A stretch of 64,000 bases of DNA from an uncultured Paraprevotella sp. (lineage in GTDB: Bacteria > Bacteroidota > Bacteroidia > Bacteroidales > Bacteroidaceae): assembly GCA_944320775.1 (NCBI GenBank), contig CALUIV010000003.1:253-64252 (forward strand), in the 5' to 3' direction. The position numbers and the translations under genes were made by a program. Each line of letters begins with the position of its first letter. The first letter of the stretch is position 1. Shown here one piece after another: positions 5,330 through 38,471 of this stretch. The notes under the pieces are model-generated. The model made no database searches and was not told where the DNA came from. It saw only the letters and a list, made by a program, of their open reading frames with translations.

Positions 5330-5461
5330 GGACTTATCTATTTAATGTTACAACTTATGTATGTTAAAAAGCATGACAAAAATACGGCATTAAATCGAAT
5401 ATTCAAAGTTGATTTCAATTATTAATATTTATTATTATGCACTTAGGAAACAATATACCAT

Positions 5462-7531: not shown

Positions 7532-8122
7532 TTATAAATCACATGCAGACGATTCTTTTGCCTGCTGTTTTTTCATATTATCATATGCTTCCTTACGTTC
7601 AGCCAAATAACGATCGAGGTATTCTATACAGCTCTTCGTCACGGCTATTCGTCCGGAACGCACATACTGCAACACACAACCATAATCATTCAGGGCATGA
7701 TAGAGCGACATAATATCTTCGGTCATGCCACGCTTCGTCACTATCGTATAAGTAGGATTCATTTCAACAATCTGTCCGCCATGTTTTCGGATTTCCTTGG
7801 AAATCATCGGATTGTTTATTGCAATCTCTGTAGTCAGCTTATATAACCCTACTTCTTGGATAAAAATCTCATCATCCGTAAAATAATTAGCCTGAAGCAC
7901 ATCAATCTTTTTTTCGATCTGCTTGGTAATCGTCGAAATCTGTTCTTCGGTACTCCAACAGGTAATTGTGTACTTATGAACTCCCTTAATGCTTGATGCC
8001 GAAACATTCAAACTTTCAATATTTACCTGACGACGCGTAAAAACAGCTGTCACCTGATTCAAAACACCCGCAAAATTCTCCGAGAAAACCAGTAACGTAT
8101 AAAATTTCTTATCTTGTTCCAT
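7532..8122 (-). CDS. ilvN: Acetolactate synthase small regulatory subunit
   Basis: ACT domain ENFAGVLNQVTAVFTRRQVNIESLNV; C-terminal VRSGRIAV. Confidence 0.92.
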   Translation of the reverse strand: MEQDKKFYTLLVFSENFAGVLNQVTAVFTRRQVNIESLNVSASSIKGVHKYTITCWSTEEQISTITKQIEKKIDVLQANYFTDDEIFIQEVGLYKLTTEIAINNPMISKEIRKHGGQIVEMNPTYTIVTKRGMTEDIMSLYHALNDYGCVLQYVRSGRIAVTKSCIEYLDRYLAERKEAYDNMKKQQAKESSACDL

Positions 8123-8126
8123 ACCT

Positions 8127-9833
8127 TTAATCTTTTTTTATCTGCAACAACATATCATCCACATCATTTCCCGGACTGCACATCGGCATCACCTCGCCTT
8201 CTTCAATGACAGCCACTTGTAAAAGATAAGGACCTTCCGTATGGATCATACGATCGATAGCAGCCTCCAGTTCTTCACGGGCAACAACCGTTTCATTCGG
8301 AATATTATAGGCAGAAGCGATCATATTGTAATCCGGATTTAACATCGGTGTAAATGAATACCGGCGATGGAAAAACATTTCCTGCCACTGACGAACATTT
8401 CCCAAATAGTTATTGTTAAGCAAAATCATCTTAACCGGTGCACCTTGTTCCATAATCGTACCGAACTCCTGTATGGTCATCTGAATACCACCATCGCCCA
8501 TAAACAAACAAACCAGACGATCCGGAGCTCCAAAAGTTGCTCCAATCGCAGCCGGAATTCCAAATCCCATAGTACCCATACCACCAGATGTAACGATACT
8601 TCTCTTTTTCGTAAATTTGAAATAACGCGCAGAAAGCATTTGGTTTTGACCGACATCCGTTACCAAAATTGCCTCGTTTCCTGTCATTTCAGTAACCTTA
8701 CGTACAACCTCACCCATTTTTATCGGTCCGTCCTGAGGATGAATTTCCGGCTCAATTACAATGCGACGTTCTTCCTCATGATGCACCTCAAAACTGTCAA
8801 TCCATTCCGTATGCTGTTGTTTTTTCATTAACGCAGTCACGGCAGCCAATGTATCCTTACAGTTACCTAATACGGCCAAATCAACCGGTACGTTCTTATT
8901 TACCTCACTGGGATCTATCTCAAAATGAATCTTGCGGGCCTGCTTGGCATATGTACTCAAATTTCCCGTAATCCGATCGTCGAAACGCATACCTACGGCT
9001 ATCAACAGATCACACTCCTGAGTCTTACGATTACTAGCCAGACTGCCATGCATACCCAACATACCCATATTCAAACGATGATCAGAAGGCAAGGCGGACA
9101 ATCCTAACAAAGTACATCCCGCCGGCATGTCAGCCAATTCCAGGAACTGAAGCAATTCTTCCTGTGCTTCGCCCAGCTCGACACCTTGACCGACCAAAAC
9201 CAAAGGCCGTTTTGCCTCATTAATCATACGTGCAGCCTCAACGACTGATTCCGGATCGGTTTTAGGAACAGGAACATAACTTCGTACAAAATCCACATTC
9301 TCCGGTTCGTAATCAACCATACCAACCTGAGCATTTTTTGCAAAGTCCAAAACTACAGGCCCCGGACGTCCGGAGCGTGCAATATAAAAAGCCCGACTGA
9401 CAGCCCAGGCAATATCCTCCGGACGACGAATCTGATAAGCCCATTTTGATATAGGTTGGGTCACACCAACCAAATCACACTCTTGAAAAGCATCAGATCC
9501 CAACATATTGGCACCTACCTGACCACAAATCACAACTATCGGCGTACTATCCATCATTGCATCAGCAATACCGGTAATCGTATTAGTTGCTCCCGGTCCA
9601 CTCGTTACCAAACAGACACCTACTTTTCCAGACACACGGGCATACCCCTGAGCTGCATGTGCAGCTCCCTGTTCATGACGAACCAAAACATGATTCAATG
9701 TGTCCTTATGATCGTAAAGTGCATCAAATACCGGCATAATAGCTCCTCCCGGATATCCGAAAAGCGTCGTAACCCCTTCATTCTCCAAAGAACGCATTAA
9801 AGCCTCCGCACCTGTAATTCTCTGTTTTTCCAT
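8127..9833 (-). CDS. ilvB: Acetolactate synthase large subunit
   Basis: FGYPGGAIMP, RHEQGA, TSGPGATN, GMRFDDR, GDGGIQM...NN ThDP motif. Confidence 0.96.
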   Translation of the reverse strand: MEKQRITGAEALMRSLENEGVTTLFGYPGGAIMPVFDALYDHKDTLNHVLVRHEQGAAHAAQGYARVSGKVGVCLVTSGPGATNTITGIADAMMDSTPIVVICGQVGANMLGSDAFQECDLVGVTQPISKWAYQIRRPEDIAWAVSRAFYIARSGRPGPVVLDFAKNAQVGMVDYEPENVDFVRSYVPVPKTDPESVVEAARMINEAKRPLVLVGQGVELGEAQEELLQFLELADMPAGCTLLGLSALPSDHRLNMGMLGMHGSLASNRKTQECDLLIAVGMRFDDRITGNLSTYAKQARKIHFEIDPSEVNKNVPVDLAVLGNCKDTLAAVTALMKKQQHTEWIDSFEVHHEEERRIVIEPEIHPQDGPIKMGEVVRKVTEMTGNEAILVTDVGQNQMLSARYFKFTKKRSIVTSGGMGTMGFGIPAAIGATFGAPDRLVCLFMGDGGIQMTIQEFGTIMEQGAPVKMILLNNNYLGNVRQWQEMFFHRRYSFTPMLNPDYNMIASAYNIPNETVVAREELEAAIDRMIHTEGPYLLQVAVIEEGEVMPMCSPGNDVDDMLLQIKKD

Positions 9834-9851
9834 GATATATAATACTACCTT

Positions 9852-11657
9852 TTAATCATTTATAATACGAACTCCACCCTTATCAGCCGAACTAACCATA
9901 GAAGCATATGCCTTAAGCGACTTCGGAACAATACGGTTGCGTGTCATCGGACGCTGTGGACGGGCGGCCAGTTCCTCATCGCTCAACTTCACCTGAATCG
10001 TACGGTTCGGAATATCAATCTCTATCAGGTCTCCATCCAAGATTTTTCCTATATTACCTCCTGCTGCAGCTTCCGGTGAAATATGACCGATGCTCAGGCC
10101 TGACGTACCTCCAGAAAAACGTCCGTCAGTAATTAAAGCACATTCCTTACCTAAATGACGACTCTTGATATAGGAAGTCGGATAGAGCATTTCCTGCATT
10201 CCGGGACCTCCTTTAGGGCCTTCGTGCGTGATCACAACAACATCTCCACGAACAACCTTTCCATTCAGGATGCCCTCACAAGCATCTTCTTGAGAATCAA
10301 AAACTTTTGCAGGGCCACAAAAATGCCAGATACTTTCATCAACACCCGCTGTTTTAACAACACAACCATCCTGTGCAATATTACCAAACAGAATAGCCAG
10401 TCCACCATCCTTGCTATAGGCATGCTCTACTTCGCGAATGCATCCGTCTGCCCGGTCTGTATCCAACGTGTCATAAGTATTGTTTTGTGATCCCATCTTG
10501 TTACTAAACACACCTCCTGGAGCACTGCTATAAATACGCAAGGCCTCTTCACTGACCTGGTCTCCCATAATCGAATACTTATTTATATCTTCGCCCAAAG
10601 TAGCTCCATTCACACGAATGCAAGTAGTATCCAACAGGTTTACCCGTGCCAATTCCCCTAGAATATTCAAGATACCTCCAGCACGGTTACATTCCTGAAT
10701 AGAATATTTGACCGTGTTCGGAGCCAGTTTACACAAACAAGGTACTTTTCGGCTCAAGGCATCAATATCTGCCATTTTGAAGTCTACTCCGGCTTCATTG
10801 GCAATTGCCAGTAAATGAAGTACTGTGTTGGTTGAACCGCCCATGGCAATATCCAAAGTCATGGCATTCAGAAAAGCCTGACGAGTCGCAATACTTCTGG
10901 GCAATACCCGATCGTCTCCCTCTTCATAATATTTAAGCGCATTCTTCACGATCAACTGTGCGGCGTCTTTAAATAATTGAATACGATTGACATGGGTAGC
11001 CAAAATGGTTCCATTTCCAGGAAGAGACAATCCTAAAGCCTCCGTCAGAGAATTCATGGAATTAGCCGTAAACATTCCCGAACAACTACCGCATCCGGGA
11101 CAAGCATGTTCCTCAATCTCATTCAATTCTTCCTGAGTCACCGTATCATCGGCACCCTTTACCATAGCAGTAATCAAATCAATGTTTTGTCCTCGCCATT
11201 TTCCGGCCTCCATCGGACCTCCGGACACAAAAACAGTCGGAATATTCAGCCGCATACTGGCCATCAGCATTCCCGGTGTAATTTTATCACAGTTCGAAAT
11301 ACAAATCATTGCATCAGCCTTGTGCGCATTCACCATATATTCCACACTGTCAGCAATAATATCCCGCGATGGCAAAGAATACAACATACCGTCGTGCCCC
11401 ATTGCAATACCATCGTCTATGGCAATCGTATTGAATTCGGCCGCATAACATCCCAATTTTTCAATTTCGGCCTTTACCAACTGACCGATTTCATGTAAAT
11501 GTGTATGTCCCGGCACGAATTGAGTAAAAGAATTGACTATAGCGATAATTGGTTTTCCAAATTGTTCCCGTTTCATTCCATTGGCTACCCACAAAGCACG
11601 GGCTCCCGCCATTCTGCGCCCTTCCGTACTGAAGGCACTCCTAAGCTGATGTTTCAT
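9852..11657 (-). CDS. ilvD: Dihydroxy-acid dehydratase
   Basis: [51 protein letters not shown]; likely start MKHQLRS at 11657. Confidence 0.96.
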
Positions 11658-11696
11658 CGTATTATGTTTTAGTTTTTTCATTTTTCATTGAGCACA

Positions 11697-11728
11697 CAAA
11701 TTTATAGGCTTTTTTTTTATTAAACAAA
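11697..11728 (-). promoter_or_regulatory. Consensus Bacteroidetes promoter for the ilv operon
   Basis: On the minus strand TTTG (11725-11728), a 20-nt spacer, then TAAATTTG (11697-11704). Confidence 0.65.
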
Positions 11729-11912
11729 AGTTTTTAGAATAAAATGCCTTTTAAATACGAATTAAAACTAAAAACATTATTTAAATTACAAATTATAATA
11801 TCACAAATCTTAATTATTTCATTTATGCTCAAATTGGATTCTATTCAAGTCAACTTTTCATTTTAATATTTATAGAAATAAACAATATAAGATACGACTA
11901 CTCCATCTCGAA

Positions 11913-12965
11913 CTATAATACATAGCCGACCCGCAACAAACCAAGAATATTCCTTTCCTGATTATTCCTGATCAAATGGATAGCGGGCTGTACATAACCA
12001 TTTTTATGAGAAAAAGGAAACTTCCAGGTTAATTCACCCGCCCATTCATATGAATCCATAAAATCTGCATGATTAATAAAAATACCACCAACCGTCTGTT
12101 TTTTATGGAAAACCATTCCAACTCCAACGTAATTCCGACAATTCAAATATGCAGCCGGAGAAACCGAATATTGCAAAAGCAAATGAACATTCCGAAATAC
12201 CCGTTTTTCTATATACCCCCATAAAACAGTCGATATGTTTTTCTTATTTACATTTATCTCATCAAATTCACGGCCATTTTTATGCTCTGAATCTCCTTCT
12301 AAATAAAAGACAAAACCACCAAAATAACCATTACCATTTCTCTGATAATCTACAGAAATAATACTCAAGAGACCATCTGCATCAGGACAAAAACGGAATA
12401 CATTGTTCATTCCGGTAATATTCCGATATCCTGTTCCATTATATAATGACGATTCAATGGTCCAATGATTAAATTTCAATTTATAGTCTATCGCCATGGA
12501 TGCTACCGGATAATTGGCTATCGGATAATTAGCGGATATTGTAGGAAATATACCACAGGAGCTGTTGGTAAACAAAGAAGTACACGATGAAACAAAATAA
12601 TCCTCATTCAAATTACGCACACCGAAGAAAAAAGAAGATTGCTCCATAGGAATCCGAATCCCCAAAACGGCTGGTGCCAAAGGAATACCTTCTGCTTCAA
12701 TATTGGAAAACACCTGTAAATCATTTGCCAGACGTTCCTGTCTAGTTTTGGCTACACTGACAGATGCACATTCAAATTCTATTTTTCTACCCAAAGGTAA
12801 AGTAAAATCACTCCGAAGCAGGTTCACCCAATTTGCTCCCTTTCTGAAATCTGTCTGCAATTCTGTTGTATAAGTCAATTCGAAAGTCTGTGCAACAAGA
12901 TGGTGACAGTTCATAAGCCCTGTCACCATAAAAACAACATATATATTCTTCATTGTTATATTCAA
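11913..12965 (-). CDS. Outer-membrane porin-like beta-barrel (OprB-like)
   Basis: Signal peptide, alternating beta-strand pattern, C-terminal GLLRVGYVL; 4 bp downstream of mgtA. Confidence 0.6.
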   Translation of the reverse strand: MNITMKNIYVVFMVTGLMNCHHLVAQTFELTYTTELQTDFRKGANWVNLLRSDFTLPLGRKIEFECASVSVAKTRQERLANDLQVFSNIEAEGIPLAPAVLGIRIPMEQSSFFFGVRNLNEDYFVSSCTSLFTNSSCGIFPTISANYPIANYPVASMAIDYKLKFNHWTIESSLYNGTGYRNITGMNNVFRFCPDADGLLSIISVDYQRNGNGYFGGFVFYLEGDSEHKNGREFDEINVNKKNISTVLWGYIEKRVFRNVHLLLQYSVSPAAYLNCRNYVGVGMVFHKKQTVGGIFINHADFMDSYEWAGELTWKFPFSHKNGYVQPAIHLIRNNQERNILGLLRVGYVL

Positions 12966-12969
12966 TCTG

Positions 12970-15612
12970 TTACAGCCATTTCACAAATCGCTTGATATAC
13001 CAGTTCTTAACCAATTGAGTCAACATACAATAAGACAACAAAATACCCAATAACCAAGGGAAATAGCTTAAAGGAAGCGGTTGTAAGCCTATAACCTGTC
13101 CGACTGAAGTAAACGGAATCAGAATGCCTATAGCCATGATCAGGAAAGTTAATCCCATTACAGGCCACGAAGCACAACTTTGAATAAAAGGAATTTTTCT
13201 TGTCCGTATCATATGTACTATCAAAGTCTGTGAAAGAAGTCCTTCTATAAACCATCCGGATTGAAACAAAGTTTGATGTTCTGCCGAATTGCATCCAAAA
13301 ACATACCACATAACCAGATAAGTAGCTATATCAAAAATAGAACTGATCGGTCCGATAAAAATCATGAAACGACTCAGGTCGGAAGCATCCCATTTACGTG
13401 GTTTACATAAATATTCAGCATCCATACGGTCAAACGGTATCGTTGTCTGCGACAAATCATACAACAGATTCTGAATAAGCAAATGAATAGGCAACATCGG
13501 CAAGAAAGGAAGAAATGCACTGGCAGCCATCACACTAAACATACTACCGAAATTCGAACTTGCGGTCATCTTTACATATTTAATAATGTTACCAAAAGTC
13601 TTTCGTCCCTCCAGCACACCAGCCTCCAACACCATCAAATCCTTTTCCAATAGAATAATATCTGCACTCTCTTTGGCTATATCCACGGCTGAATCAACAG
13701 AAATACCGATATCAGACTGACGTAATGCCGAAGCGTCATTAATCCCATCCCCCAAAAAACCGACTGTGTTTTGCTGTTCCTGAAGCAAAATGATAATCTC
13801 TGTTTTCTGTAAAGGAGTCAGTTTTGAAAAAACAGTGGTATTCAGGACTGCTTCTCTACGTTCCTCATCGCTCAAAGCCGCCAACTCCGATCCTGTAAGC
13901 ACATTATCCGTTTTGATACCTACCTGTCTGGCAATTGTCCGTACTACAGCATCATTATCTCCTGACAAGATTTTCACCTCGACTCCATGTTCATGTAACT
14001 GACGTATTGCACCGGCTGCGGATTGTTTGGGTGGATCAAGAAAAGCAAGAAAACCAATCAGCACCATATCATTTTCATCTTTTACACAAAAATTACAATC
14101 CTTATCCAAATAACTTTTATGGGCTACGGCCAAAACACGCATACCCTGCTTATTCAATTGTTCGCTGATAAGTTTTGCTTTCTGCTTAAGTTCCGATGTA
14201 AAAGGCTGTACGGTCTTATCAAATTCAGCATAAGAACAGATTTCAATCATCTCTTCCACAGCCCCTTTTGTAATAATCTGCCTTTTACCTTGTCTATCCT
14301 CGATGACAACAGACATTCTCCGACGGGTAAAATCAAAAGGGATTTCATCTACTTTCCGATAATTATCCTTCAGATGGTCCAATGCCAATTCCTTTATATG
14401 AGAAAGTATGGCTTTGTCCATAAGGTTCTTTAGTCCGGTCTGGAAATAGCTGTTAAAAAAAGCATGACGCAAAATCCGTTTATCCGTATCATTACTGCCA
14501 TCCGCATTTATGTATTTTTCCAAAACAATCTGATCACAAGTCAAAGTTCCGGTCTTATCCGTACAAAGGATATTCATGGCACCAAAATTCTGAATTGCAT
14601 TCAAATCCTTCACAATTGTTTTTTTCTTGGACATAGCAACAGCCCCTTTAGAAAGGTTAGCCGTGACAATCATTGGCAGCATTTCGGGAGTCAGTCCGAC
14701 TGCCACAGAAACAGCAAAAATAAAAGCTTCCAACCAGTCACCTTTGGTCAAACCATTTACCAGAAAAACAAAGGGAATCATAATCATCATAAAACGAATC
14801 AGCAAAAAGCTGACTTTACTGATACCTTTGTCAAATGCCGTCGCTGCACGATGACCGGATATGTTTTTTGCTACTGTTCCCAAATAAGTTTGATTACCAG
14901 TAGCCAGCACAACACCAATAGCCGAACCACTGACAACATTCGACCCCATATAACAAATATTATCCAGTTCAACGACACTACCAGGCTTTTCACCGTGGAT
15001 ATCCGGACATTTTTCTACAGGATCAGACTCTCCGGTAAGCGAAGACTGACTGACAAACAAATCCTTTGCCTGAATGATTCGAATATCAGCCGGTATCATA
15101 TCACCAGCTGCAATCATCACAATATCTCCGGGTACGAGTTCGGCAATACTGATTTCTTCATCCAAACAGCCAGCACGTTTTACATAACAGGTATTGGTCA
15201 CCATTTTCAATAAAGCTTCGCTCGACTTTCCTGCTTTCCATTCCTGCCAAAATCGAAGTATGGCACTGAAAACAACCATTGTTGAAATAATAATTATAGC
15301 CGTCCAATCCTGTTCTCCAGGGTCCGCCAACAAAACGTCAAGTATAAACGAAATCAGAACTAAAACCGTTAAAACTCCGATAAACGGATTAATAAACGTC
15401 TTGACAAACGTAGAAACCGGATTCTTTTTCTGTTCATGTTCCACTTCATTTTTCCCATAAACCGACTGTCGCATTTCCACTTCTTCCTGACTCAATCCCA
15501 TTTTTGTCGTCTGGAAATACTGATAAACCAAATGAACTGGTTGTACTGCGGCCAAAAATACCTTTTCTGCATTAAATGTACCTTGATGCATTGTTTTTTT
15601 CTTCTTCCACAT
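12970..15612 (-). CDS. mgtA: Magnesium-translocating P-type ATPase
   Basis: LTGES, AVGLTPEMLP, DKTGTLT phosphorylation site, PFDFTRRRMS, SGDN, GDGINDA, TASSNFG. Confidence 0.95.
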   Translation of the reverse strand: MWKKKKTMHQGTFNAEKVFLAAVQPVHLVYQYFQTTKMGLSQEEVEMRQSVYGKNEVEHEQKKNPVSTFVKTFINPFIGVLTVLVLISFILDVLLADPGEQDWTAIIIISTMVVFSAILRFWQEWKAGKSSEALLKMVTNTCYVKRAGCLDEEISIAELVPGDIVMIAAGDMIPADIRIIQAKDLFVSQSSLTGESDPVEKCPDIHGEKPGSVVELDNICYMGSNVVSGSAIGVVLATGNQTYLGTVAKNISGHRAATAFDKGISKVSFLLIRFMMIMIPFVFLVNGLTKGDWLEAFIFAVSVAVGLTPEMLPMIVTANLSKGAVAMSKKKTIVKDLNAIQNFGAMNILCTDKTGTLTCDQIVLEKYINADGSNDTDKRILRHAFFNSYFQTGLKNLMDKAILSHIKELALDHLKDNYRKVDEIPFDFTRRRMSVVIEDRQGKRQIITKGAVEEMIEICSYAEFDKTVQPFTSELKQKAKLISEQLNKQGMRVLAVAHKSYLDKDCNFCVKDENDMVLIGFLAFLDPPKQSAAGAIRQLHEHGVEVKILSGDNDAVVRTIARQVGIKTDNVLTGSELAALSDEERREAVLNTTVFSKLTPLQKTEIIILLQEQQNTVGFLGDGINDASALRQSDIGISVDSAVDIAKESADIILLEKDLMVLEAGVLEGRKTFGNIIKYVKMTASSNFGSMFSVMAASAFLPFLPMLPIHLLIQNLLYDLSQTTIPFDRMDAEYLCKPRKWDASDLSRFMIFIGPISSIFDIATYLVMWYVFGCNSAEHQTLFQSGWFIEGLLSQTLIVHMIRTRKIPFIQSCASWPVMGLTFLIMAIGILIPFTSVGQVIGLQPLPLSYFPWLLGILLSYCMLTQLVKNWYIKRFVKWL

Positions 15613-15657
15613 TTTGCGTTGTGTTACAAGTTATTACTCCAGTTATTTTAAACGCTG

Positions 15658-15665
15658 CAAAAGTA
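15658..15665 (-). promoter_or_regulatory. -7 element (TACTTTTG) of the mgtA promoter
   Basis: TAnnTTTG match 46 bp upstream of the mgtA ATG; no TTTG at the expected -33 position. Confidence 0.6.
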
Positions 15666-15688
15666 AGAGCATCTTTTCGGAAACTCCG

Positions 15689-15732
15689 TTAGAGACCTAT
15701 TAGAACGGTATTAGAAACCCATTAGAAAATTT
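15689..15732. repeat. Four TTAGA direct repeats at an exact 11-bp period (candidate response-regulator operator)
   Basis: ttaga at 15689, 15700, 15711, 15722: ttagagaccta/ttagaacggta/ttagaaaccca/ttagaaaattt. Confidence 0.8.
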
Positions 15733-15765
15733 TCATTACTTATTCCGTATATCACTTTTTATGCT

Positions 15766-15773
15766 TATCTTTG
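15766..15773 (+). promoter_or_regulatory. -7 element (TATCTTTG) for slyD-aroC
   Basis: TAnnTTTG match 27 bp before ATG 15801. Confidence 0.6.
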
Positions 15774-15800
15774 TCACTCAAACTTCAAAAAATAAAAGAA

Positions 15801-16388
15801 ATGAATACGACTTCAAACAAGTACATCACAGTAGCTTATGAGTTATACACTGATTTCGACGGCAAACAGGAACTGGTAGAAAAGGCACCCGTAGAACATC
15901 CTTTCCAGTTTATTTCCGGTTTGGGAACTACACTTGATGCCTTCGAAGCACAGATTACCCCACTTGCCAAAGGCGACAAATTTGACTTTGTCCTAAGTAT
16001 TGAAGAAGCTTACGGTGAATACGAACAGGAACACGTTGTCGAAGTTCCCAAAGAAGTATTCCACGTTAACGGCAAGTTCGACAATGAACATATTTATCCG
16101 GGTGCAGTTGTTCCTTTGACCAATGGCGACGGAGCACGATTCAACGGAACCATTGCAGAAATTGCCAACAATACCGTAACTGTAGACCTCAATCATCCGC
16201 TCGCAGGAAAAGAACTTCACTTTATCGGAGAAGTAACAGAAATGCGCGAGGCAACCAAAGAAGAGATCCAGCAAATGTTGAATATGCTGAGCGGTGAAGG
16301 CGGCTGTGGTTGTGGCGGATGCGGCGGCGGATGCGACGAAGGTGGTTGCTGCGACAGTCAAAAGGGGGGCTGTTGCGGTTGCAATTAA
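15801..16388 (+). CDS. slyD: FKBP-type peptidyl-prolyl isomerase, SlyD-like, with Cys/Gly-rich tail
   Basis: [30 protein letters not shown]; start MNTTSNKY at 15801. Confidence 0.88.
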
Positions 16389-16431
16389 CAACAGGCCACA
16401 TAAAAACACAAAGCAAGACAAAAAAACAAGC

Positions 16432-17508
16432 ATGAGCAATACATTTGGCAACATATTCCGTCTGACCAGTTTTGGTGAAAGTCACGGCCCTGCCATAGGT
16501 GGGGTCATTGACGGTTTTCCAGCTGGAATCGACATCGACACAGAATTTATTCAAAACGAGCTGAACCGCCGCCGTCCGGGACAAAGCCATTTGACCACTC
16601 CTAGAAAAGAAGCTGATCAAGTTGAATTCCTTTCCGGCATATTCGAAGGTCGCTCTACAGGGTGTCCCATAGGATTTATTGTCCGAAACACCAACCAACA
16701 TTCGAACGATTACGACAACATACGTAACCTGTTCCGTCCGTCGCATGCCGATTTTACTTATACCAGCAAATATGGCTTGCGCGACCATGCCGGAGGCGGC
16801 CGTTCATCCGCCCGGGAAACTATTGCCCGGTGTGTAGGCGGCGCATTAGCCAAATTAGCTTTGCGCCAACTGGGCATCCAAATATATGCCTATACCTCTC
16901 AAGTTGGTGATATCTGCCTGAATCCGGATTACCGTCTTTATCAGCCGGAACTGATAGAAAGTAATCCTGTACGCTGCCCTGACCCGGAAATAGCCGAACG
17001 AATGGCTGCACGTATTTCTGAAGTTAAAGCCAAAGGCGATACCATAGGCGGTGTCATTACAGGCGTTATCCAAGGTTGTCCAGTCGGATTGGGCGAACCC
17101 GTTTTCGGAAAATTGCATGCAGCCCTAGGATATGCCATGCTCAGCATTAATGCCGTCAAAGGATTTGAATACGGAAAAGGATTTGCAGGTGTAAGCGAAA
17201 CCGGCAGTCAGCAAAACGATATTTTCTTTCAGAACAATGGGAAAATAGATGTGAAGACCAATAACAGTGGTGGTATACAAGGCGGCATCAGCAACGGTCA
17301 GGACATTTATTTCCGGGTGGCTTTCAAACCGGTTGCTACCATCCTGATGGAACAAGCAACCGTTTCAGCCGATGGTACGGACACCGTACTCAAGGCACGT
17401 GGACGCCACGATGCCTGCGTACTCCCACGCGCAGTTCCCATTGTTGAATCTATGGCTGCAATGACCATACTAGACTATTATCTACTCAACAAAACGACAA
17501 CAATATAA
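16432..17508 (+). CDS. aroC: Chorismate synthase
   Basis: MSNTFG...[41 protein letters not shown]; start at 16432. Confidence 0.96.
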
Positions 17509-17535
17509 CTTTTTTGAGAAATAAACACTCAAAAA

Positions 17536-17566
17536 TTTGCATTATAACAACAATTTGTTATCTTTG
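17536..17566 (+). promoter_or_regulatory. Consensus Bacteroidetes promoter
   Basis: TTTG (17536-17539), 19-nt spacer, TATCTTTG (17559-17566). Confidence 0.75.
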
Positions 17567-17571
17567 CAGCA

Positions 17572-17671
17572 AAGAGTTGTGAAACTCCAGTTTTTATAGC
17601 TTAATTAAAAGATCTAGTTTAGTTTTTGTGTTGGTTAATGGGAGCTTTTTTGAGCTCCCATTAATTTTTTT
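17572..17671 (+). ncRNA. Candidate ~100-nt small RNA or leader RNA
   Basis: Bounded by a consensus promoter and a strong intrinsic terminator; contains no ORF. The 5' end is estimated from the -7 element. Confidence 0.55.
17635..17671 (+). terminator. Intrinsic terminator
   Basis: Perfect 12-bp stem ttaatgggagct / agctcccattaa, 6-nt loop, then T7. Confidence 0.88.
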
Positions 17672-17696
17672 CATACCTATAAAAAAGTTTGAAAAA

Positions 17697-18917
17697 ATGA
17701 AAATAATCCATACTAGTGACTGGCATCTTGGACAAACGCTCTACGGCCATGACCGCACAGAAGAACAAACTGCATTTTTAAATCAGTTAGTCGAAATCGT
17801 CAGGAAAGAACAGCCGGACGCATTGGTCGTCAGTGGTGATATTTTCCATACCAGTACTCCTTCATCTACAATTCAGAAGCTCTACACCGAACATCTGCTT
17901 CGTATCCGCCAGGCAGCTCCAACAAGTACAATCGTCGTCACAGCCGGCAATCACGACAGTGCTTCCAAATTAGAAATTACCAGTAGCCTTTGGCAACACT
18001 TCGGAGTATATATTATCGGACAAATTCATCGCAACACTGATGGAACAGCAGATCTGTCACACCATATCATTCCTGTTCGTCCTACTCCTGAAAGTGCTCC
18101 AAAAGGGTTTATCATAGCTGTTCCTCATGTCTATCCCTACAATTTTCCGGATTTAACAGGTGATACTCCACGAGAACAACGCCAAGAAGCTTTCTTTAAG
18201 ACACTCCAGACCATTACCGATCAGCTGAACTCCGACAACCTTCCTGTAGTCCTGATGGCCCACCTGACCGTGACGGGAAGCGATCAGACCGGTCATGATC
18301 TTTCCTTAGGCGGCATGGACAGTATTGACATCCGAACACTTGGCAACGGTTATGATTATCTGGCCTTGGGACATATTCACGGACAACAAACACTCTCCTC
18401 TCCATGTGGTACTGCCCGATATTGCGGTACACCAATTCCAGTTAGTTTCGACGAAAAAGGCATACACTCGGTCAGCCTTGTTGAAATAACAGCTCACCAT
18501 ACCCACCCCAAAATACAAACCATCCCAATCCAGAACCCTTGTCCGCTCCATACCCTTCCAACCACACCGCTTCCAATCGAAGAAGCACTCGAAGCATTGC
18601 GGAATTTCTCAACGACAGACACGGCCTATATCCGATTAAACGTATTGGCAGAAAACTTTCTTAATCCCAATGCCCAGGAACAAGCTTCAGAACTATCCCG
18701 GCAAAAAGGCTACCGTTTCTGTTACATACATATCCAAAGACCCGAGTCAAAACTACAAAATCAGCATCATGCCCTGACCGTTCAAGAATTACGTAAAAAG
18801 TCACCTGTTGACATTGCCCGCATGTACTACGAAGATACTCAAAACACCAACCTCCCCGAAGATTTTACTACCATGATCCAGGAAGCATGGCATCAAATCC
18901 AAGAAGAAAATAATTAG
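17697..18917 (+). CDS. sbcD: Exonuclease SbcCD subunit D (Mre11-like)
   Basis: HTSDWHLG, VSGDIFH, AGNHDS, MAHL, ALGHIH metallophosphoesterase motifs; start MKIIH at 17697. Confidence 0.93.
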   Translation: MKIIHTSDWHLGQTLYGHDRTEEQTAFLNQLVEIVRKEQPDALVVSGDIFHTSTPSSTIQKLYTEHLLRIRQAAPTSTIVVTAGNHDSASKLEITSSLWQHFGVYIIGQIHRNTDGTADLSHHIIPVRPTPESAPKGFIIAVPHVYPYNFPDLTGDTPREQRQEAFFKTLQTITDQLNSDNLPVVLMAHLTVTGSDQTGHDLSLGGMDSIDIRTLGNGYDYLALGHIHGQQTLSSPCGTARYCGTPIPVSFDEKGIHSVSLVEITAHHTHPKIQTIPIQNPCPLHTLPTTPLPIEEALEALRNFSTTDTAYIRLNVLAENFLNPNAQEQASELSRQKGYRFCYIHIQRPESKLQNQHHALTVQELRKKSPVDIARMYYEDTQNTNLPEDFTTMIQEAWHQIQEENN

Positions 18918-18935: not shown

Positions 18936-21900
18936 ATGCATTTCAAGAAACTTTATATAAAAAATCTGGCATCAATTGAAGAAGCAGAAATCGACTTCGA
19001 AAACGGCCCGCTTTCTGAAGATGCCCTATTTCTGATTTGTGGCGAAACCGGATCTGGAAAAACCACTCTTTTAGATGCTATCTGCCTTGCTTTGTTCAAC
19101 AACACACCACGCATGGAACAAAGCAAGCAAGAATGTTATTATGATCATCCGACCAATTCTGAAACAGCTCAGAACCAGATTTCCAAAACCGACGATCCCC
19201 GACAACTTTTACGCAGAAATACAGGCGAAGCTATTGTACAACTTGAATTTACCGGATCGAACGACTTAAAATACACAGCCATTTGGAATGTTTATCGAAG
19301 TCACCGTAAAAGTACAGGAACCCTACAAGATATCCGATGGACTCTGATCGATGAAACCAACAATTGTACCTATACCAAAAAGGGAGAGATCAAAGAAGAA
19401 ATCAGTCAAGCCGTTGGCTTGACCTTTGAACAATTCTGCCGAACGACCATGCTGGCACAAGGGGATTTCACACGATTTTTAAAGAGCGACAGTAAAGACA
19501 AGTCTGACATTCTGGAAAAACTGACTGGCACGGCAATCTATTCCCGTATAGGAATCCAAATTTTTCAGATCAACAAACAAAAACGAAATGCGCTCGAACA
19601 GCAACAATTAAAACTCAATAATATCCGGCTGTTCACACCGGAAGAATTGGAACAATACAACACCGAACTGCAGGAATACATCCAACAGATTGGGCGCATG
19701 CGTCAAAAACAAAAAGAACTTCAGGCACTGGAACAATGGCAAAAACGCGCTATCGAACTGGCCCGACAAGCAGAAATAAAGCATAACGAACTAACAAAGA
19801 AACAGACCGAGCTTCAATCTGAACAATTTCTTGCAAAAGAAAAGCTACTGGAACAATGGCACAGTTCTGCAGACGCCCGAACTCAACTTAACCAGCTGAC
19901 CGTTCTTCGACAACGTGAAAAAGAACTTCAAAAACAATTGTTGGAAAAGAGTAACACTTATGCCAATCTCTGTTTCGACCTGAAACAACTGAAACTTTAC
20001 ATAACAAAAATCGAACAAAACGTACAACAGGTCCGCAACATACAGACAGCATTGGCTCCACTTTCAAGTATGCTTGAAAACGAACAGGCCATATCAGCAA
20101 CCTTGCGCCAACTTATTCAACAACGCGTACGTCTTGATTCGCTAAAGGAACGGGAACTACAATTACGCCAGCAACTCACAATCCAGGAAGAGAAAAGCAA
20201 AGCATCGGGTAAAGAAGCCCAAAAACTTGCAGAACAGCTGGAACAACTACAAAAAAATATCACTGAACAGCAACAGCAACTCAACCAGAAAAAAGCTACA
20301 GAAGTCCTACAACAAAAAAGCCTTCTGGAACAAGAACGACATTTGCTTCAACCAGCGCTGACCGACATTACGCTTCTGATAGAGCGTCGGAACAACAAGC
20401 AACAAGCTCGAACATCCTGCAGCAACTGGCAAAACCAACTACAAAAAACAGCTGAAGCAGAAAAGGCAGCAACTTTAGAACAAACAGAAAAGAAAAAAGC
20501 AGCCGACGACTTCGAACAATTATTCAATAAACAAAAAGCCGCCATCGAAGACTGGGCACGCGAAGCCCGCTTCCGTCTTCATCCCGGAGATTCCTGTCCC
20601 GTATGTGGCCAAACCGTCCACAACATTCCCACCGATGAACAGTTCCGCTCCATACTGACTCCCATGCAAGAAAAGTTAGACCTTCTGAAAAAAGAAAGCG
20701 ATGAACAGGAAGCTAAAGTACGCAGCCTCAATGCCCAAAGAAAAGCCTACGAAGAACAATATCGACAAGCCGTTGAAATCCTGCACACTTGCGAAGCAAA
20801 CTATTCGGAAGCTTACACAAAAGCCAGTCAAAGCTGCGCAGCCTGTGGGATACCAACCTTTCAGCAAGATACACCAGCACAGCTGGATAACCGTCTGAAA
20901 AATGTACAGACCCAACTGGAACATCTGAACATCAAGGAACAGGAAATCAACAGACTCAACCAACATATACAGCAGCTACAGCAGAAAAAAGACCAGTTGC
21001 AAACCTTATTTAACACCAAAAACAAAGAAACGAACCAACTCGAACAGCTTCATGCGGCATTAAAGAAACAAATCGAAGAACTCATCCGACAAGCCAGTTC
21101 CGAACAACAGGCACTTAGCGAACAAGAAAATCTGCTGGCTCCTCAGATACTCTGGGAGGACTGGAAAAATATCTGGAAAAACGATCCGTCCCAACTGTTA
21201 ACCAGATTAGAACAAACCGGTAAAACCTATCGTCTGTCACGAGAACAGCAACAGCAACTCGAGCAACAGCTCAATCAGGCACAATCTGAATTACGCGAAG
21301 CCGAACGCAGCTGCCAGTCTGTCACTCTAGATTTTCCGGAGTGGACTCAGATTCCGGCCACCCGTACCCTATTCCAACCCGAAGGACTTCTCTCCCGTTG
21401 GAATGAGCTACAATCACAAGCCTATAATCTGGCACAAAGTCGAAATAATCTCCGGAAAGAAACAGATGCACAAACCCAAGCCCTTCAGGATTTTTATCAC
21501 ACACATCCCGATATCTCTCCGGAACGCCTGAGCTATCTAACCCGAATGACCACAGACGATACAACCAATCTGCAACACCACCTGCAAAAAGCCCGAAACG
21601 AAGAAGTAGCATTGCAGAGTGCTTTGAAACTTATTCTTGAAGAACAAGAGCAGCACATCGGAAATCGTCCTCCTTTTGCACTGACTGACGATCAGTCGCT
21701 TGAAGAACAACTCCGAAGTACTGAACAGGCAATATCAGAAACCGACCAGAAGATCGGACGTCTGACAACCACTTTGGAAGAAAACCGGCAACGGCAAAAA
21801 CAATGCGAACAAGAGCAAAACGAATACAAACGCCTTGAGTCGGACTACCACAAATGGAACAGTCTGTGTCATCTTTTCGGCGACAATAACGGAGTAAAAT

Positions 21901-22358
21901 TCAGGAATATAGCCCAAAGCTACGTACTCCGCGAACTACTCTATCATGCCAACCAATATCTACGACAGTTCACCGACCGCTACGAAATGATTTGTCCGTC
22001 AGTGAGCCTGACCATCCTGATCCGAGATTTCTATCAGGGGGGTGCCCAACGTCCAACAAGTACCCTTTCAGGAGGTGAAAGTTTTCTAGTTTCCCTGTCA
22101 CTGGCTCTCGGCTTGTCTGCATTAACCCACGACAACCAGTCTGTCGACACCCTCTTTATCGATGAAGGATTCGGAACACTGAGCAGCGATTATCTGAATG
22201 TCGTCATGGATACATTAGAAAAACTACACCAACTTAACGGCAAGCGCGTCGGCATCATCAGCCACGTAGAAGGATTGCGCGAACGTATCCGCACCCAGAT
22301 TCAGGTACGCCGTAAAGACAATTCCTGCAGCGAAATCAAAACTGTCTGCCTCAACTGA
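18936..22358 (+). CDS. sbcC: SbcC/Rad50-like SMC ATPase
   Basis: Walker A GETGSGKT, long coiled coils, CPVCG zinc hook, LSGGE signature, FIDEGFGTL Walker B. Confidence 0.93.
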   Translation: MHFKKLYIKNLASIEEAEIDFENGPLSEDALFLICGETGSGKTTLLDAICLALFNNTPRMEQSKQECYYDHPTNSETAQNQISKTDDPRQLLRRNTGEAIVQLEFTGSNDLKYTAIWNVYRSHRKSTGTLQDIRWTLIDETNNCTYTKKGEIKEEISQAVGLTFEQFCRTTMLAQGDFTRFLKSDSKDKSDILEKLTGTAIYSRIGIQIFQINKQKRNALEQQQLKLNNIRLFTPEELEQYNTELQEYIQQIGRMRQKQKELQALEQWQKRAIELARQAEIKHNELTKKQTELQSEQFLAKEKLLEQWHSSADARTQLNQLTVLRQREKELQKQLLEKSNTYANLCFDLKQLKLYITKIEQNVQQVRNIQTALAPLSSMLENEQAISATLRQLIQQRVRLDSLKERELQLRQQLTIQEEKSKASGKEAQKLAEQLEQLQKNITEQQQQLNQKKATEVLQQKSLLEQERHLLQPALTDITLLIERRNNKQQARTSCSNWQNQLQKTAEAEKAATLEQTEKKKAADDFEQLFNKQKAAIEDWAREARFRLHPGDSCPVCGQTVHNIPTDEQFRSILTPMQEKLDLLKKESDEQEAKVRSLNAQRKAYEEQYRQAVEILHTCEANYSEAYTKASQSCAACGIPTFQQDTPAQLDNRLKNVQTQLEHLNIKEQEINRLNQHIQQLQQKKDQLQTLFNTKNKETNQLEQLHAALKKQIEELIRQASSEQQALSEQENLLAPQILWEDWKNIWKNDPSQLLTRLEQTGKTYRLSREQQQQLEQQLNQAQSELREAERSCQSVTLDFPEWTQIPATRTLFQPEGLLSRWNELQSQAYNLAQSRNNLRKETDAQTQALQDFYHTHPDISPERLSYLTRMTTDDTTNLQHHLQKARNEEVALQSALKLILEEQEQHIGNRPPFALTDDQSLEEQLRSTEQAISETDQKIGRLTTTLEENRQRQKQCEQEQNEYKRLESDYHKWNSLCHLFGDNNGVKFRNIAQSYVLRELLYHANQYLRQFTDRYEMICPSVSLTILIRDFYQGGAQRPTSTLSGGESFLVSLSLALGLSALTHDNQSVDTLFIDEGFGTLSSDYLNVVMDTLEKLHQLNGKRVGIISHVEGLRERIRTQIQVRRKDNSCSEIKTVCLN

Positions 22359-22369
22359 CCCCGAACACC

Positions 22370-22440
22370 ACGAGCCCTCCCCGGATGTTTCCCCTGCCTT
22401 TTTCAGGCTCTCAGGAAACATCCGGGGAGGGCTCGTTTTT
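22370..22440. terminator. Long hairpin terminator between sbcC and the EamA gene
   Basis: Perfect 23-bp inverted repeat acgagccctccccggatgtttcc (22370-22392) / 22414-22436, then a T tract. Confidence 0.85.
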
Positions 22441-22485
22441 TATTATCTTCCTTTATGAAAAATCAGTCCGTCTCCCAATGCCCGC

Positions 22486-23406
22486 TTATGAATGTCGCGG
22501 ACGAATCATCCGCACCACCGTGGTCAATGTGTTTTGAATCGGCTTACCTAAAATAATCAGCGTCACAGCTATCAGAATCAGCACGATGCCCAGTCCCTGC
22601 TGCCAGGTGAACGCCTCGCCGAAAACAAAAGCACCGATACAGACCGCCGTGACCGGTTCGAGCGCTCCCAACACCGAAGTCATCGTCCCTCCGATATGGT
22701 GGACAGCTAACAACAGCGTAATGTTGGAAATCACGGTCGGCAACACCGCCAACAGGAACAGGTTTACCCCCGACAACACATCCGGCACCGGTTGCCATCC
22801 GCCGGTATAGCACATTTTCCCCACGAACAGCAAGGTGGTGAACACAAACACGTAAAAAGCCAGTTTACGGCTGTTCATCGTACGCAGGCGCGACTTATTG
22901 ACCGTCGTGATATAACTGGCATATCCCAATGCCGAGCACAACACTAAAAATACCCCTGTGGCACTGAAAGCCACATCGCCACTGATAGAAAGTTTCGCCA
23001 CGCCATAAACAGCCAGCAAAATAGCAATCCACGTAAGCAACGACGCCTTTTCACGATACAAAACCAACATCAGCAAGGTAACGAACACGGGGTAAGTAAA
23101 ATGCAGCGTAGTGGCCACTCCCGCTCCCATGTAATCATATCCCCAGAACAGGAACTGTGCGGAAACCATATAAAATGATGCCAGCACAAACAGAAGCGGC
23201 AAATCGCGCCAGTCAATAGCAAACGATTCATGATGCACCTTCATCATCACTCCCAATGCCACCGTAGCCATCAGGAAACGATAGAACAGAATCGAATCAA
23301 TGGTCATCCCGCCATGCATCAGCGGCAAGGTAAACAGCGGAATCAGTCCGAAGGTCACCGAAGTGACCACCCCATAAAAAATCCCTTTAAAACTATTCAT
23401 CTCCAA
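22486..23406 (-). CDS. DMT/EamA family transporter
   Basis: About 10 TM segments in two repeats; GAGVATTLHFTYP, SVLGALEPVTA. Confidence 0.88.
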   Translation of the reverse strand: MEMNSFKGIFYGVVTSVTFGLIPLFTLPLMHGGMTIDSILFYRFLMATVALGVMMKVHHESFAIDWRDLPLLFVLASFYMVSAQFLFWGYDYMGAGVATTLHFTYPVFVTLLMLVLYREKASLLTWIAILLAVYGVAKLSISGDVAFSATGVFLVLCSALGYASYITTVNKSRLRTMNSRKLAFYVFVFTTLLFVGKMCYTGGWQPVPDVLSGVNLFLLAVLPTVISNITLLLAVHHIGGTMTSVLGALEPVTAVCIGAFVFGEAFTWQQGLGIVLILIAVTLIILGKPIQNTLTTVVRMIRPRHS

Positions 23407-23469
23407 TTAAATTTTTCCAGTAAGGTTTCTTCTTCTTTTCATTCAACGACACCAAGTCATCCTTTCCGC

Positions 23470-24876
23470 TTACAGTTCCACTTCGACAGCTGCCGGATAG
23501 AGGCGCTCCGGGTCGTAATAAGCAGCACAGCTGTTCACCATATTTTCAACCGAACATTTCAATTTGCCACTAAACACTTTCCGTCCATTCACCCGTACGG
23601 TGATCTTTTTCGACAGGTCTACCAGATTTTCATTCAAATAAATTATGAATTTTCCGCGTTTGGCCGGTTGATACTGTTTCGTAAACTTCAATTCTATTCC
23701 CCAATGCGGATCCCGCTCCACGGTTGTATACGTCACATCATCAACCGTCATATCAATCCGGTTGTCACGGATTTCCATCACATATCGGGTGCGGCTTCCC
23801 GGAACCGTATCCGTACGTTCCACAACATAAAGGTTATAAAATCCGTCGCGATACCATCCATCCATGTCATACTGCTCCCAAACCACCTTTTTCGGATGCG
23901 GCTGGCGCGTAAACTGTTTCAGCCAAGGTGTTGTCGGCCGGTAGTCAATGCAGTGGCCCATACCCGGAATCAGTTCCACCCGATGTGCATAGCCCTCCGG
24001 ATCGGTCTGCTGCAGGCTGTCGAATTCCTGGCGGACATATTCCGTCAGCTGATTTCGATAGAATCCGGCATCCTTGCTACCGGTCAGCAAAGAAAATCCG
24101 ATGTTCCGGCAATTTTCAGCCGGTGCATTCTTCAGCGGTTCGCCACCGGCCATCGGTCCGGCCGCTGCCAGATAATCGGCATAGAACGAAGCCAGACGCT
24201 GGCTGCCGTATCCGCCTTCCGATATGCCGAAGAAATAAACCTTGTTCGCATCGATCTGCCCTGTCACAAAAGCCTGGCGCAACAACTGTTTCCAGGCAAA
24301 CTGCTTCGACTTCTGCCACCAGCGGTAATATTCTCCCATATTCGGAATCTGCGGAATGAAATATGCCGACGGAGCATCATCGAACATCCGGCACAGCGCA
24401 AGTCCCGTGGCCCACTCATCATTCTTATGACCGGAACCATGAAGATAGACGAACATCGGGAAACCATTTTCAGGCTTTTCTCCTTTCGTTCCCCAATAAT
24501 ACATCAGGTCGGCATAAGGTTCGAGCTGACGCGGCAGACGCCATTTACCAATCCGTTCCTGCTCCAGCGGTTCCAGACCGATCAGTTTCGGCTCGCGCAC
24601 CTCCTTATTGGCCCGACACCAAGCCTCCCAAACCTGTTTCCTTACTTGAGCCACCTCCGACACCGGGATGAAACTACCGCCATCATACACCGTATCCTTA
24701 CCGGCTATGGCCTGCTTGAAGAAAGCCACCATGCCCTCTTCATCCGCCGGCACCTCTCTTGTGCTCGTTTCACGACGCAAATGTCCCGTCTCATCAGTCG
24801 TTGCAACCGGCAAACCGGCCGATACACTGCCTGCCAGACCGAAAATCACACTGCAAAATAAAAATATCCGATTCAT
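23470..24876 (-). CDS. Secreted alpha/beta-hydrolase (esterase/depolymerase-like)
   Basis: Signal peptide MNRIFLFCSVIFGLAGSVSA; YLHGSG oxyanion region, GISEGG nucleophile elbow, GMGH His. The start could be 24876-24885. Confidence 0.65.
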   Translation of the reverse strand: MNRIFLFCSVIFGLAGSVSAGLPVATTDETGHLRRETSTREVPADEEGMVAFFKQAIAGKDTVYDGGSFIPVSEVAQVRKQVWEAWCRANKEVREPKLIGLEPLEQERIGKWRLPRQLEPYADLMYYWGTKGEKPENGFPMFVYLHGSGHKNDEWATGLALCRMFDDAPSAYFIPQIPNMGEYYRWWQKSKQFAWKQLLRQAFVTGQIDANKVYFFGISEGGYGSQRLASFYADYLAAAGPMAGGEPLKNAPAENCRNIGFSLLTGSKDAGFYRNQLTEYVRQEFDSLQQTDPEGYAHRVELIPGMGHCIDYRPTTPWLKQFTRQPHPKKVVWEQYDMDGWYRDGFYNLYVVERTDTVPGSRTRYVMEIRDNRIDMTVDDVTYTTVERDPHWGIELKFTKQYQPAKRGKFIIYLNENLVDLSKKITVRVNGRKVFSGKLKCSVENMVNSCAAYYDPERLYPAAVEVEL

Positions 24877-38392: not shown

Positions 38393-38471
38393 ACTTTTTA
38401 GTTTTCGTGGCAAAAATAATAGTTATTACCCATTTTTGCAAACAAAACGCTATTTTTTTAGCGGAAATAAA

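Follow-up and report, generated by a model that had tools for sequence, protein, structure and literature searches.

A probable BTnc049-related small RNA gene between aroC and sbcDC in an uncultured Paraprevotella sp.

Organization of the aroC-sbcD interval

In the window (the whole stretch of 64,000 nucleotides of DNA analysed here), the chorismate synthase gene aroC is followed on the same strand by the sbcDC operon. The two are separated by a compact interval with the following features:

16432..17508, plus strand: aroC (chorismate synthase; Pfam PF01264 Chorismate_synt, E 1e-136; gene calls in identical contigs)
17536..17566, plus strand: promoter with the Bacteroides sigma-ABfr / PM1 consensus, consisting of TTTG (-33), a 19-nt spacer and TATCTTTG (-7)
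17572..17573, plus strand: predicted transcription start, an A located 6-7 nt past the -7 box, as expected from relatives
17574..17587, plus strand: 5' hairpin GAGUU-GUGA-AACUC, 5 bp with a GNRA tetraloop, unchanged in every relative and in the Rfam consensus
17588..17613, plus strand: variable A/U-rich linker, from the alignment (68% identity to the relative at locus L209)
17614..17634, plus strand: conserved U-rich core CUAGUUUAGUUUUUGUGUUGG, family-invariant, a candidate pairing or protein-binding segment
17633..17671, plus strand: intrinsic terminator with a 15-pair stem (12 Watson-Crick), a 4-nt loop and T7, from the terminator scan and the fold
17672..17696, plus strand: 25-nt spacer to sbcD without a canonical promoter and, on reading the sequence, with the near-match AAAGTTTG only
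17697..18917, plus strand: sbcD (Pfam Metallophos and SbcD_C)
18936..22358, plus strand: sbcC (Pfam AAA_23 and SbcC_Walker_B)

The initial annotation had described a promoter-to-terminator cassette devoid of ORFs, ending 25 nt ahead of sbcD. Both statements are accurate: an ORF search of the cassette returned nothing of at least 20 aa except a spurious in-frame GTG extension of sbcD, and the T run ends at 17671 with the sbcD ATG at 17697. An 8-codon ATG frame within the terminator stem is not conserved. The sRNA terminator is the sole terminator-like site within 16500-18500, and aroC has none of its own ahead of it in this range. The interval is a genuine self-contained gene for a non-coding RNA with a predicted length of ~100 nt.

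Promoter and predicted structure of the RNA

The -33 TTTG (17536-17539), the 19-nt spacer and the -7 box TATCTTTG (17559-17566) can be read directly from the DNA, so that the textbook promoter proposed for 17536-17566 is present with its full consensus. The TTTG...TAnnTTTG arrangement is the Bacteroides sigma-ABfr or 'PM1' consensus (PMC7366714). On both strands of the 64 kb, the pattern TTTG-N19-21-TAnnTTTG has 5 matches, compared to 1.3 +/- 1.1 in shuffled sequences, none of which (0/100) reached this number. A TAnnTTTG box also precedes nearly all of the 120 family loci collected from metagenomes (see below). The other four full-consensus sites of the window are all on the minus strand, at 5377-5407, 11697-11728, 38411-38442 and 59462-59493.

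The distance between the promoter and the RNA body differs within the family. At the Bacteroides-type loci, the -7 box lies 14 nt ahead of GAGTTG and position 1 of the Rfam model falls 7 nt after the box, resulting in a leader of 8-9 nt, which the Rfam consensus folds into helix P1. For the window copy and L209, the distance from the box to the hairpin is only 7 nt, and the RNA is therefore expected to begin at ~17572-17573, without leader and without P1. The predicted transcription start would thus precede the hairpin by 1-2 nt. Metatranscriptome contigs start near this position, at 17578-17585.

Folding of the region 17570-17675 (106 nt) yields -30.7 kcal/mol (z = -4.9), and 0 of 200 shuffled sequences fold as well. 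The small 5' hairpin that had been noticed is present at 17574-17587, with a stem unpaired probability of 0.01-0.25, but it is formed by 5 bp closed by a GNRA tetraloop (GAGUU/GUGA/AACUC) and not by 4 bp with a 6-nt loop. The linker at 17588-17613 carries UAGCUUAAUU, a degenerate copy of UAGUUUAGUU, the motif that is duplicated in Bacteroides BTnc049. It leads into the U-rich middle ctagtttagtttttgtgttgg at 17614-17634. This segment had been called unstructured and U-rich; it is U-rich, with a predicted mean unpaired probability of 0.53. The corresponding value is ~0.35 (about 0.3-0.4) in the Bacteroides-type members, and the core of the 5'-shortened window copy is thus predicted to be more exposed than theirs.

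The terminator stem (17633-17666) contains 15 pairs when G-U pairs are counted, around a Watson-Crick core of 12 bp (17635-17646 / 17653-17664) that is as perfect as first described, and the T7 tract occupies 17665-17671. Neither the MFE nor the centroid structure includes an antiterminator or any alternative fold competing with the terminator. From the housekeeping full-consensus promoter, transcription would start at ~17572 and end at ~17669-17671. The resulting transcript of roughly 100 nt would display a GNRA-capped 5' hairpin, the family-invariant U-rich stretch CUAGUUUAGUUUUUGUG and a strong intrinsic terminator.

The RNA belongs to the BTnc049 family

Scanning the region 16500-18700 with 4227 Rfam families revealed BTnc049 (RF04179) as the sole significant match. 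Model positions 1-111 align to 17566-17671 with 39.6 bits (E 1e-4 in this 2.2-kb search), which is less than half of the BTnc049 gathering score of 81.9. A minus-strand match to sraA and matches to L20_leader and DsrA (E 0.6-2) were discarded as noise. We also built a covariance model, R1, from 14 diverse Bacteroides-type relatives, leaving out the window sequence and its closest relative, L209. Searched against the 64-kb window, R1 gave a single real match at 17561-17667 (51.7 bits, E 1e-12), the next one reaching only 15.8 bits; the RNA is single-copy within the window in this search. The Rfam scores of the relatives decrease without a gap from 103, 101, 82, 67, 65, 50, 50 and 44 bits to the 39.6 bits of the window. 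This continuum places the window copy at the far end of one homologous family and argues against a separate invention. The earlier guess that the RNA belongs to a known Bacteroidales family, to be sought in Rfam, is thus supported by a sub-threshold match covering the full model length and, independently, by R1.

BTnc049 was described in B. thetaiotaomicron VPI-5482 (NC_004663.1, 1515041-1515163; Ryan et al. 2020, PMC7366714). It is catalogued there as a 'high-confidence' intergenic sRNA that has a terminator, a PM1 promoter and a transcription start mapped by dRNA-seq (PMC7366714 Supplementary Data 2). Its expression in B. theta is moderate (coverage ~1000, rank 52; PMC7366714), and it was recovered by CLIP of RbpB in B. 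thetaiotaomicron as a 'regulatory sRNA candidate' (bioRxiv 10.1101/2023.12.22.572801). We found no reported function for BTnc049 in the literature. A structure of this RNA was reportedly presented by Prezza et al. in 2022.

The elements of the family are unevenly retained in the window copy. The P2 hairpin GgaGuuGUGAaaCucC with its GNRA loop is found at 17574-17587 with 5 of the 6 consensus pairs, and the conserved core CuagUuuAGUUuuuGuGUUG at 17614-17633 is identical at 20/20 positions. The copy also has its own sigma-ABfr/PM1 promoter and Rho-independent terminator. The outer helix P1 (5' leader aCaga with uuuGu) is absent, the Rfam alignment placing promoter bases there in non-canonical pairs. 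Nor does the window copy have a LytTR response-regulator gene upstream, where aroC takes its place. Judged by its sequence, the window copy is a divergent, out-of-genus variant of an already catalogued sRNA, and the cassette as such is not new.

Conservation of the RNA and its genomic contexts

Relatives were collected by scanning metagenome contigs for GAGTTGTGAAACTC-N15-45-TAGTTTAGTT, which yielded 120 loci, mostly from the human gut. Ascertainment by this pattern is biased for the hairpin and for a portion of the core; the same conservation is displayed by three sequences obtained without it, namely the Rfam consensus, the window and L215. Common to the 120 loci are the hairpin, AAUAGAAUAGUUUAGUUAAGUCUAGUUUAGUUUUUGUGU and a freely varying terminator. 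In the alignment, the core is invariant across the family.

Between the window and L209, the hairpin is identical at 14/14 and the core at 19/21 positions, compared to 68% identity in the linker, 74% at the 3' end of aroC and 71% in sbcD. The locus L215 from a sister species, found via SbcD and not via the motif, is ~70% identical in DNA through sbcD, sbcC, EamA and beyond. Its contig begins inside the RNA, the last 46 nt of which are identical apart from a UUCG loop, and the 3' part of the core (17/21 nt) is identical as well. Six contigs with identical SbcD have an unchanged RNA body, the sole variants being a C>U change in L002, where G-U pairing is retained, and the flipped loop of L005. 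The stem is equally kept in L089 and L215, which share the UUCG loop, and the terminator of L209 contains a compensatory change from G-C to A-U. Strain variants are therefore either confined to the terminator loop or pairing-preserving. These alignments show an RNA more strongly conserved than its flanks, whose terminator variation preserves the structure.

Two terminator variants deserve separate mention. In L005, at the equivalent of 17645-17654, the loop reads CTCAAAAAAG in place of CTTTTTTGAG with an intact stem, as a result of either a hairpin-mediated inversion or an assembly artefact. L090 and L212, which represent one scaffold (ERZ16268173), are without the 3' arm of the terminator and the T tract at the equivalent of 17648-17680, where GGGAGCTT directly abuts GCACC. 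In this case, the sRNA body would be fused to the sbcD mRNA, either in a natural terminator-less variant or through an assembly error at the palindrome.

The neighbors of the RNA vary widely. By our own observation, for which there is no published criterion, the upstream gene encodes a LytTR response regulator in 96 of ~105 metagenome loci; it is aroC in the window, in L209 (AroC 84% identical) and in L146 (71%). The downstream genes form 25 clusters, several of them on the opposite strand and thus convergent, with examples including a TonB_C protein (27 loci), a tyrosine integrase (21), PNP oxidase/PNPOx (10), an endonuclease/phosphatase and 6-phosphogluconolactonase. Conversely, among the matches listed, the sbcD loci fetched by SbcD similarity have the RNA only if they belong to the genus of the window. 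Neither Rfam nor our own model detected it ahead of sbcD in ~40 other Bacteroidales sbcD loci among these matches, B. mediterraneensis and P. distasonis included. At one abundant SbcD locus of Bacteroides, sbcD has an HU-HIG gene as its immediate neighbor. L209, the only further sbcD locus with the RNA, was retrieved by the RNA-motif scan.

The varied upstream genes and the ~25 unrelated downstream genes point to an autonomous sRNA gene and not to a dedicated leader of sbcDC. Of the two readings initially offered, an sRNA acting in trans or an attenuator of sbcDC, the stand-alone sRNA is thus the one supported by the many unrelated contexts of the family. In phage collections, only chance-level matches of 44 nt within coding genes of E. 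coli phages were obtained, and there were none in plasmid collections. On one human-gut contig (L157, 4010-5400), a 1,210-bp unit with the LytTR response regulator and the BTnc049 gene is duplicated in tandem, the copies being identical.

Transcription across the terminator and expression of sbcDC

The distance from the T tract to the sbcD ATG is 25 nt in the window, 38 nt in the allele of L211 and 38 nt in L215. These spacers are unrelated in sequence, and none of the three contains a TAnnTTTG box. The remark that almost no room is left for a separate sbcD promoter therefore extends to three alleles or species, with promoter-less spacers of 25-38 nt. In the window spacer, the only near-match to a -7 box is AAAGTTTG at 17684-17691, 5 nt ahead of the ATG, with no -33 TTTG at the right distance from it. 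The more distant L209 has a 110-nt spacer to sbcD with its own TAACTTTG box.

The RNA evidence consists of assembled metatranscriptome contigs of low depth, which possibly include DNA and carry neither strand nor end information. Five metatranscriptome assemblies contain a contig that starts at 17578-17622 and crosses the terminator into sbcD; it is continuous from ~17580 past 18100 in X8, X9, X10 and X24, and begins at 17622 in X11. In X24 and X9, the aroC contig stops at 17495-17498 and a new contig runs from 17583-17585 past 18100, leaving the promoter region (~17496-17584) wholly uncovered. X8, X10 and X11 have their break at 17571-17621, and here too, the contig after the break continues through the terminator into sbcD. 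X23 has an 86-nt contig at 17585-17670 and further contigs at 17641-17721, all of them assembled contigs without read-level ends; we read the 86-nt contig as the terminated RNA that would be expected, short of a 5' end with poor coverage. Three RNA assemblies (X3, X5 and X6) cover the entire region without a break, and three RNA runs (X1, X2 and X21) behave like DNA. The contig breaks gather around the predicted start site; the junction between the terminator and sbcD shows no such clustering. In X14, a size-fractionated chicken-gut metatranscriptome, the sole contig on the stretch starts at 17699, two bases into the sbcD ATG, which could be due to chance or to a leaderless sbcD transcript from the AAAGTTTG box.

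The promoter-less spacers of 25-38 nt, together with the contigs crossing the terminator, make it probable that leaky read-through feeds sbcDC. The X14 contig and the separate box in the L209 spacer speak against this reading. On balance, we consider it more likely than not that sbcDC is supplied in this way, probably with a contribution of aroC transcripts, which meet no terminator of their own. Transcripts starting at ~17572 would terminate in part at the T tract, and those escaping, from the sRNA promoter as well as from aroC, would provide a low level of sbcDC mRNA. The terminator would then be passively leaky and not a regulated switch.

It appears rather unlikely that the adjacency is meaningless, with an efficient terminator and independent expression of sbcDC from a non-canonical or leaderless promoter of its own in the spacer. 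The near-consensus -7 box AAAGTTTG, 5 nt ahead of the ATG, and the X14 contig starting at 17699 are compatible with such a promoter, and the 12-bp G+C-containing stem with T7 resembles a strong terminator. However, this box has no -33 TTTG at the correct distance, the spacers of L211 and L215 are without any TTTG-type box, and five RNA assemblies join the sRNA body and sbcD in one contig.

Possible modes of action

We infer that the RNA may act in trans via its invariant U-rich stretch. The strong constitutive-type promoter, the protective 5' hairpin, the invariant U-rich stretch, the terminator and the RbpB link of the homologue match the picture of GibS and FopS, sRNAs that block A-rich translation start regions by base pairing (PMC11697453). 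By analogy, the U-rich stretch would pair with A-rich translation-start regions, probably together with the RRM protein RbpB. The prediction that part of this stretch is paired in the Bacteroides-type members (unpaired ~0.3-0.4) argues against the base-pairing model.

The recovery of BTnc049 in RbpB CLIP would also fit a protein-binding RNA, for example a decoy or scaffold for RbpB, with the U-rich stretch and the GNRA hairpin as recognition elements. The core is invariant to the nucleotide though its predicted pairing partners vary, which suits a binding site as well as a seed. We nevertheless regard this as improbable, since pairing is the mode of action of many RbpB-bound sRNAs, GibS and FopS among them (PMC11697453), and since the moderate expression of BTnc049 in B. 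theta (coverage ~1000, rank 52) is low for a titrating decoy.

The least probable reading is a dedicated cis-acting attenuator whose promoter would belong to sbcDC, the RNA being a leader and a signal such as DNA damage gating the terminator. In its favor, three alleles or species have no promoter in the 25-38 nt between the terminator and the sbcD ATG, contigs cross the terminator, and the RNA of L090/L212, having neither 3' arm nor T tract, would simply be an sbcD 5' UTR. Against it, the same RNA stands ahead of ~25 unrelated genes, convergent ones included, and behind two different upstream genes, is restricted to the genus of the window among the SbcD-fetched sbcD loci (matches listed), leaves sbcD with its own promoter box in L209, has no alternative to the terminator in the MFE or centroid fold, and combines a freely varying terminator with an invariant upstream core, the reverse of what an antiterminator switch predicts. 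Pairing between the core and the sbcD start region was likewise rejected, with -6.8, -10.1 and -8.9 kcal/mol in the three alleles, weaker than the mean of -11.3 kcal/mol over 65 start regions, which also counts against an attenuator. Of the proposed gating of sbcDC by read-through, the dependence on read-through thus agrees with the promoter-less spacers and the crossing contigs, while the dedicated attenuator is not supported, given the absence of an antiterminator, of a link to sbcD outside this lineage and of pairing with the sbcD start region.

With good confidence, we conclude that the cassette is a free-standing sRNA gene, a divergent and 5'-shortened relative of BTnc049 that would act in trans and most likely allows read-through into sbcDC.

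DNA exchange beside the sRNA gene

Exact AroC was found on 222 contigs and exact SbcD on 152. The metagenome scaffolds L211-L214 match the window at ~100% identity over 7705-17650 and 22350-24800, with sbcD and sbcC only 54-78% identical at the DNA level and SbcD at 69% aa identity to that of the window. This is an allelic replacement of the whole sbcDC operon within one species, the replacing operon having apparently been imported from another species of the genus. The donor-type UUCG loop locates the left crossover inside the conserved sRNA gene, in the loop of its terminator. On the right, the replacement fades out gradually across the final ~600 nt of sbcC.

At many Bacteroides loci (L093, L101, L102, L104, L106, L126, L178, L201 and L202), DNA with a tyrosine-integrase gene, preceded by repeated TTGTCGGAC motifs, starts 12-16 nt past the T tract of BTnc049 (~+110 to +1405 from the sRNA hairpin). 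In other strains, TonB-like or other genes occupy the position of the integrase, and the site next to the BTnc049 gene has the appearance of a hot spot for integration. No att-type direct repeats matching the 3' end of the sRNA were found downstream of the integrase at 13 Bacteroides loci (1-8 kb each), nor was the displaced TonB gene found beyond the integrase island in the 1-8 kb of sequence available.

Judging from the operon swap and the integrase islands, the sRNA gene may be a boundary of recombination. More speculatively, and with a rather low probability, BTnc049-type sRNA genes might serve as homology anchors or integration landmarks at the edge of exchangeable DNA, like tRNA and tmRNA genes, with the sRNA promoter and its leaky terminator as the only promoter that incoming sbcDC alleles need. 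If so, new sbcDC alleles would be plug-and-play behind the sRNA promoter. Independently of this idea, sbcDC is flagged as a locus exchanged between species of the genus.

Implications and comparison with known systems

These results extend a catalogued, uncharacterised Bacteroides sRNA family beyond its genus and beyond the Rfam threshold. Comparison with distant members separates what appears indispensable, namely the GNRA hairpin and a U-rich core of 18-20 nt, from the dispensable P1 helix, second repeat and terminator sequence, and this distinction narrows the search for the targets or the protein partner of the family. The locus is also a naturally occurring example of a DNA-repair operon and an sRNA gene that seem to be served by a single promoter. 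Current views are not overturned; the gain lies mainly in annotation and in two testable side hypotheses.

The closest known system is BTnc049 itself. Both RNAs have a PM1 (sigma-ABfr) promoter, a GNRA-capped hairpin GAGUUGUGAAACUC, the identical core CUAGUUUAGUUUUUGUGUUG, an intrinsic terminator and a length, predicted in the case of the window RNA, of ~100-120 nt, and the window copy aligns to the Rfam model over its full length. Unlike BTnc049, its -7 box is 7 nt and not 14 nt from the hairpin, the 5' leader and P1 are missing, the first UAGUUUAGUU copy is degenerate, and the terminator hairpin is plain, the conserved CGUAAGCGAACG tip being absent. It is also located between aroC and sbcDC instead of behind a LytTR response regulator, and its host belongs to a different genus, the window SbcD being only ~50% identical to Bacteroides SbcD.

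Examples of terminated-leader sRNAs transcribed from the same promoter as a downstream mRNA are rnTrpL of Sinorhizobium and SreA/SreB of Listeria. As in these systems, one promoter at the locus would give rise to a short terminated RNA and a read-through mRNA. However, rnTrpL and SreA/SreB sense a ligand or translation and are tied to their operon, whereas the window RNA belongs to a family with unrelated neighbors and has no switch structure.

GibS and the FopS family share with the window RNA a consensus promoter, a conserved single-stranded segment and a terminator, and provide the borrowed working model of RbpB association and repression at start regions (PMC7366714, PMC11697453). There is no sequence relationship to either RNA, the Rfam scan having given no FopS or GibS match at E <= 10. 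FopS is multicopy, with a single-stranded 5' end, an R1 seed and no 5' hairpin (PMC11697453), in contrast to the window RNA, which opens with a GNRA-capped hairpin and occurs once in the 64 kb.
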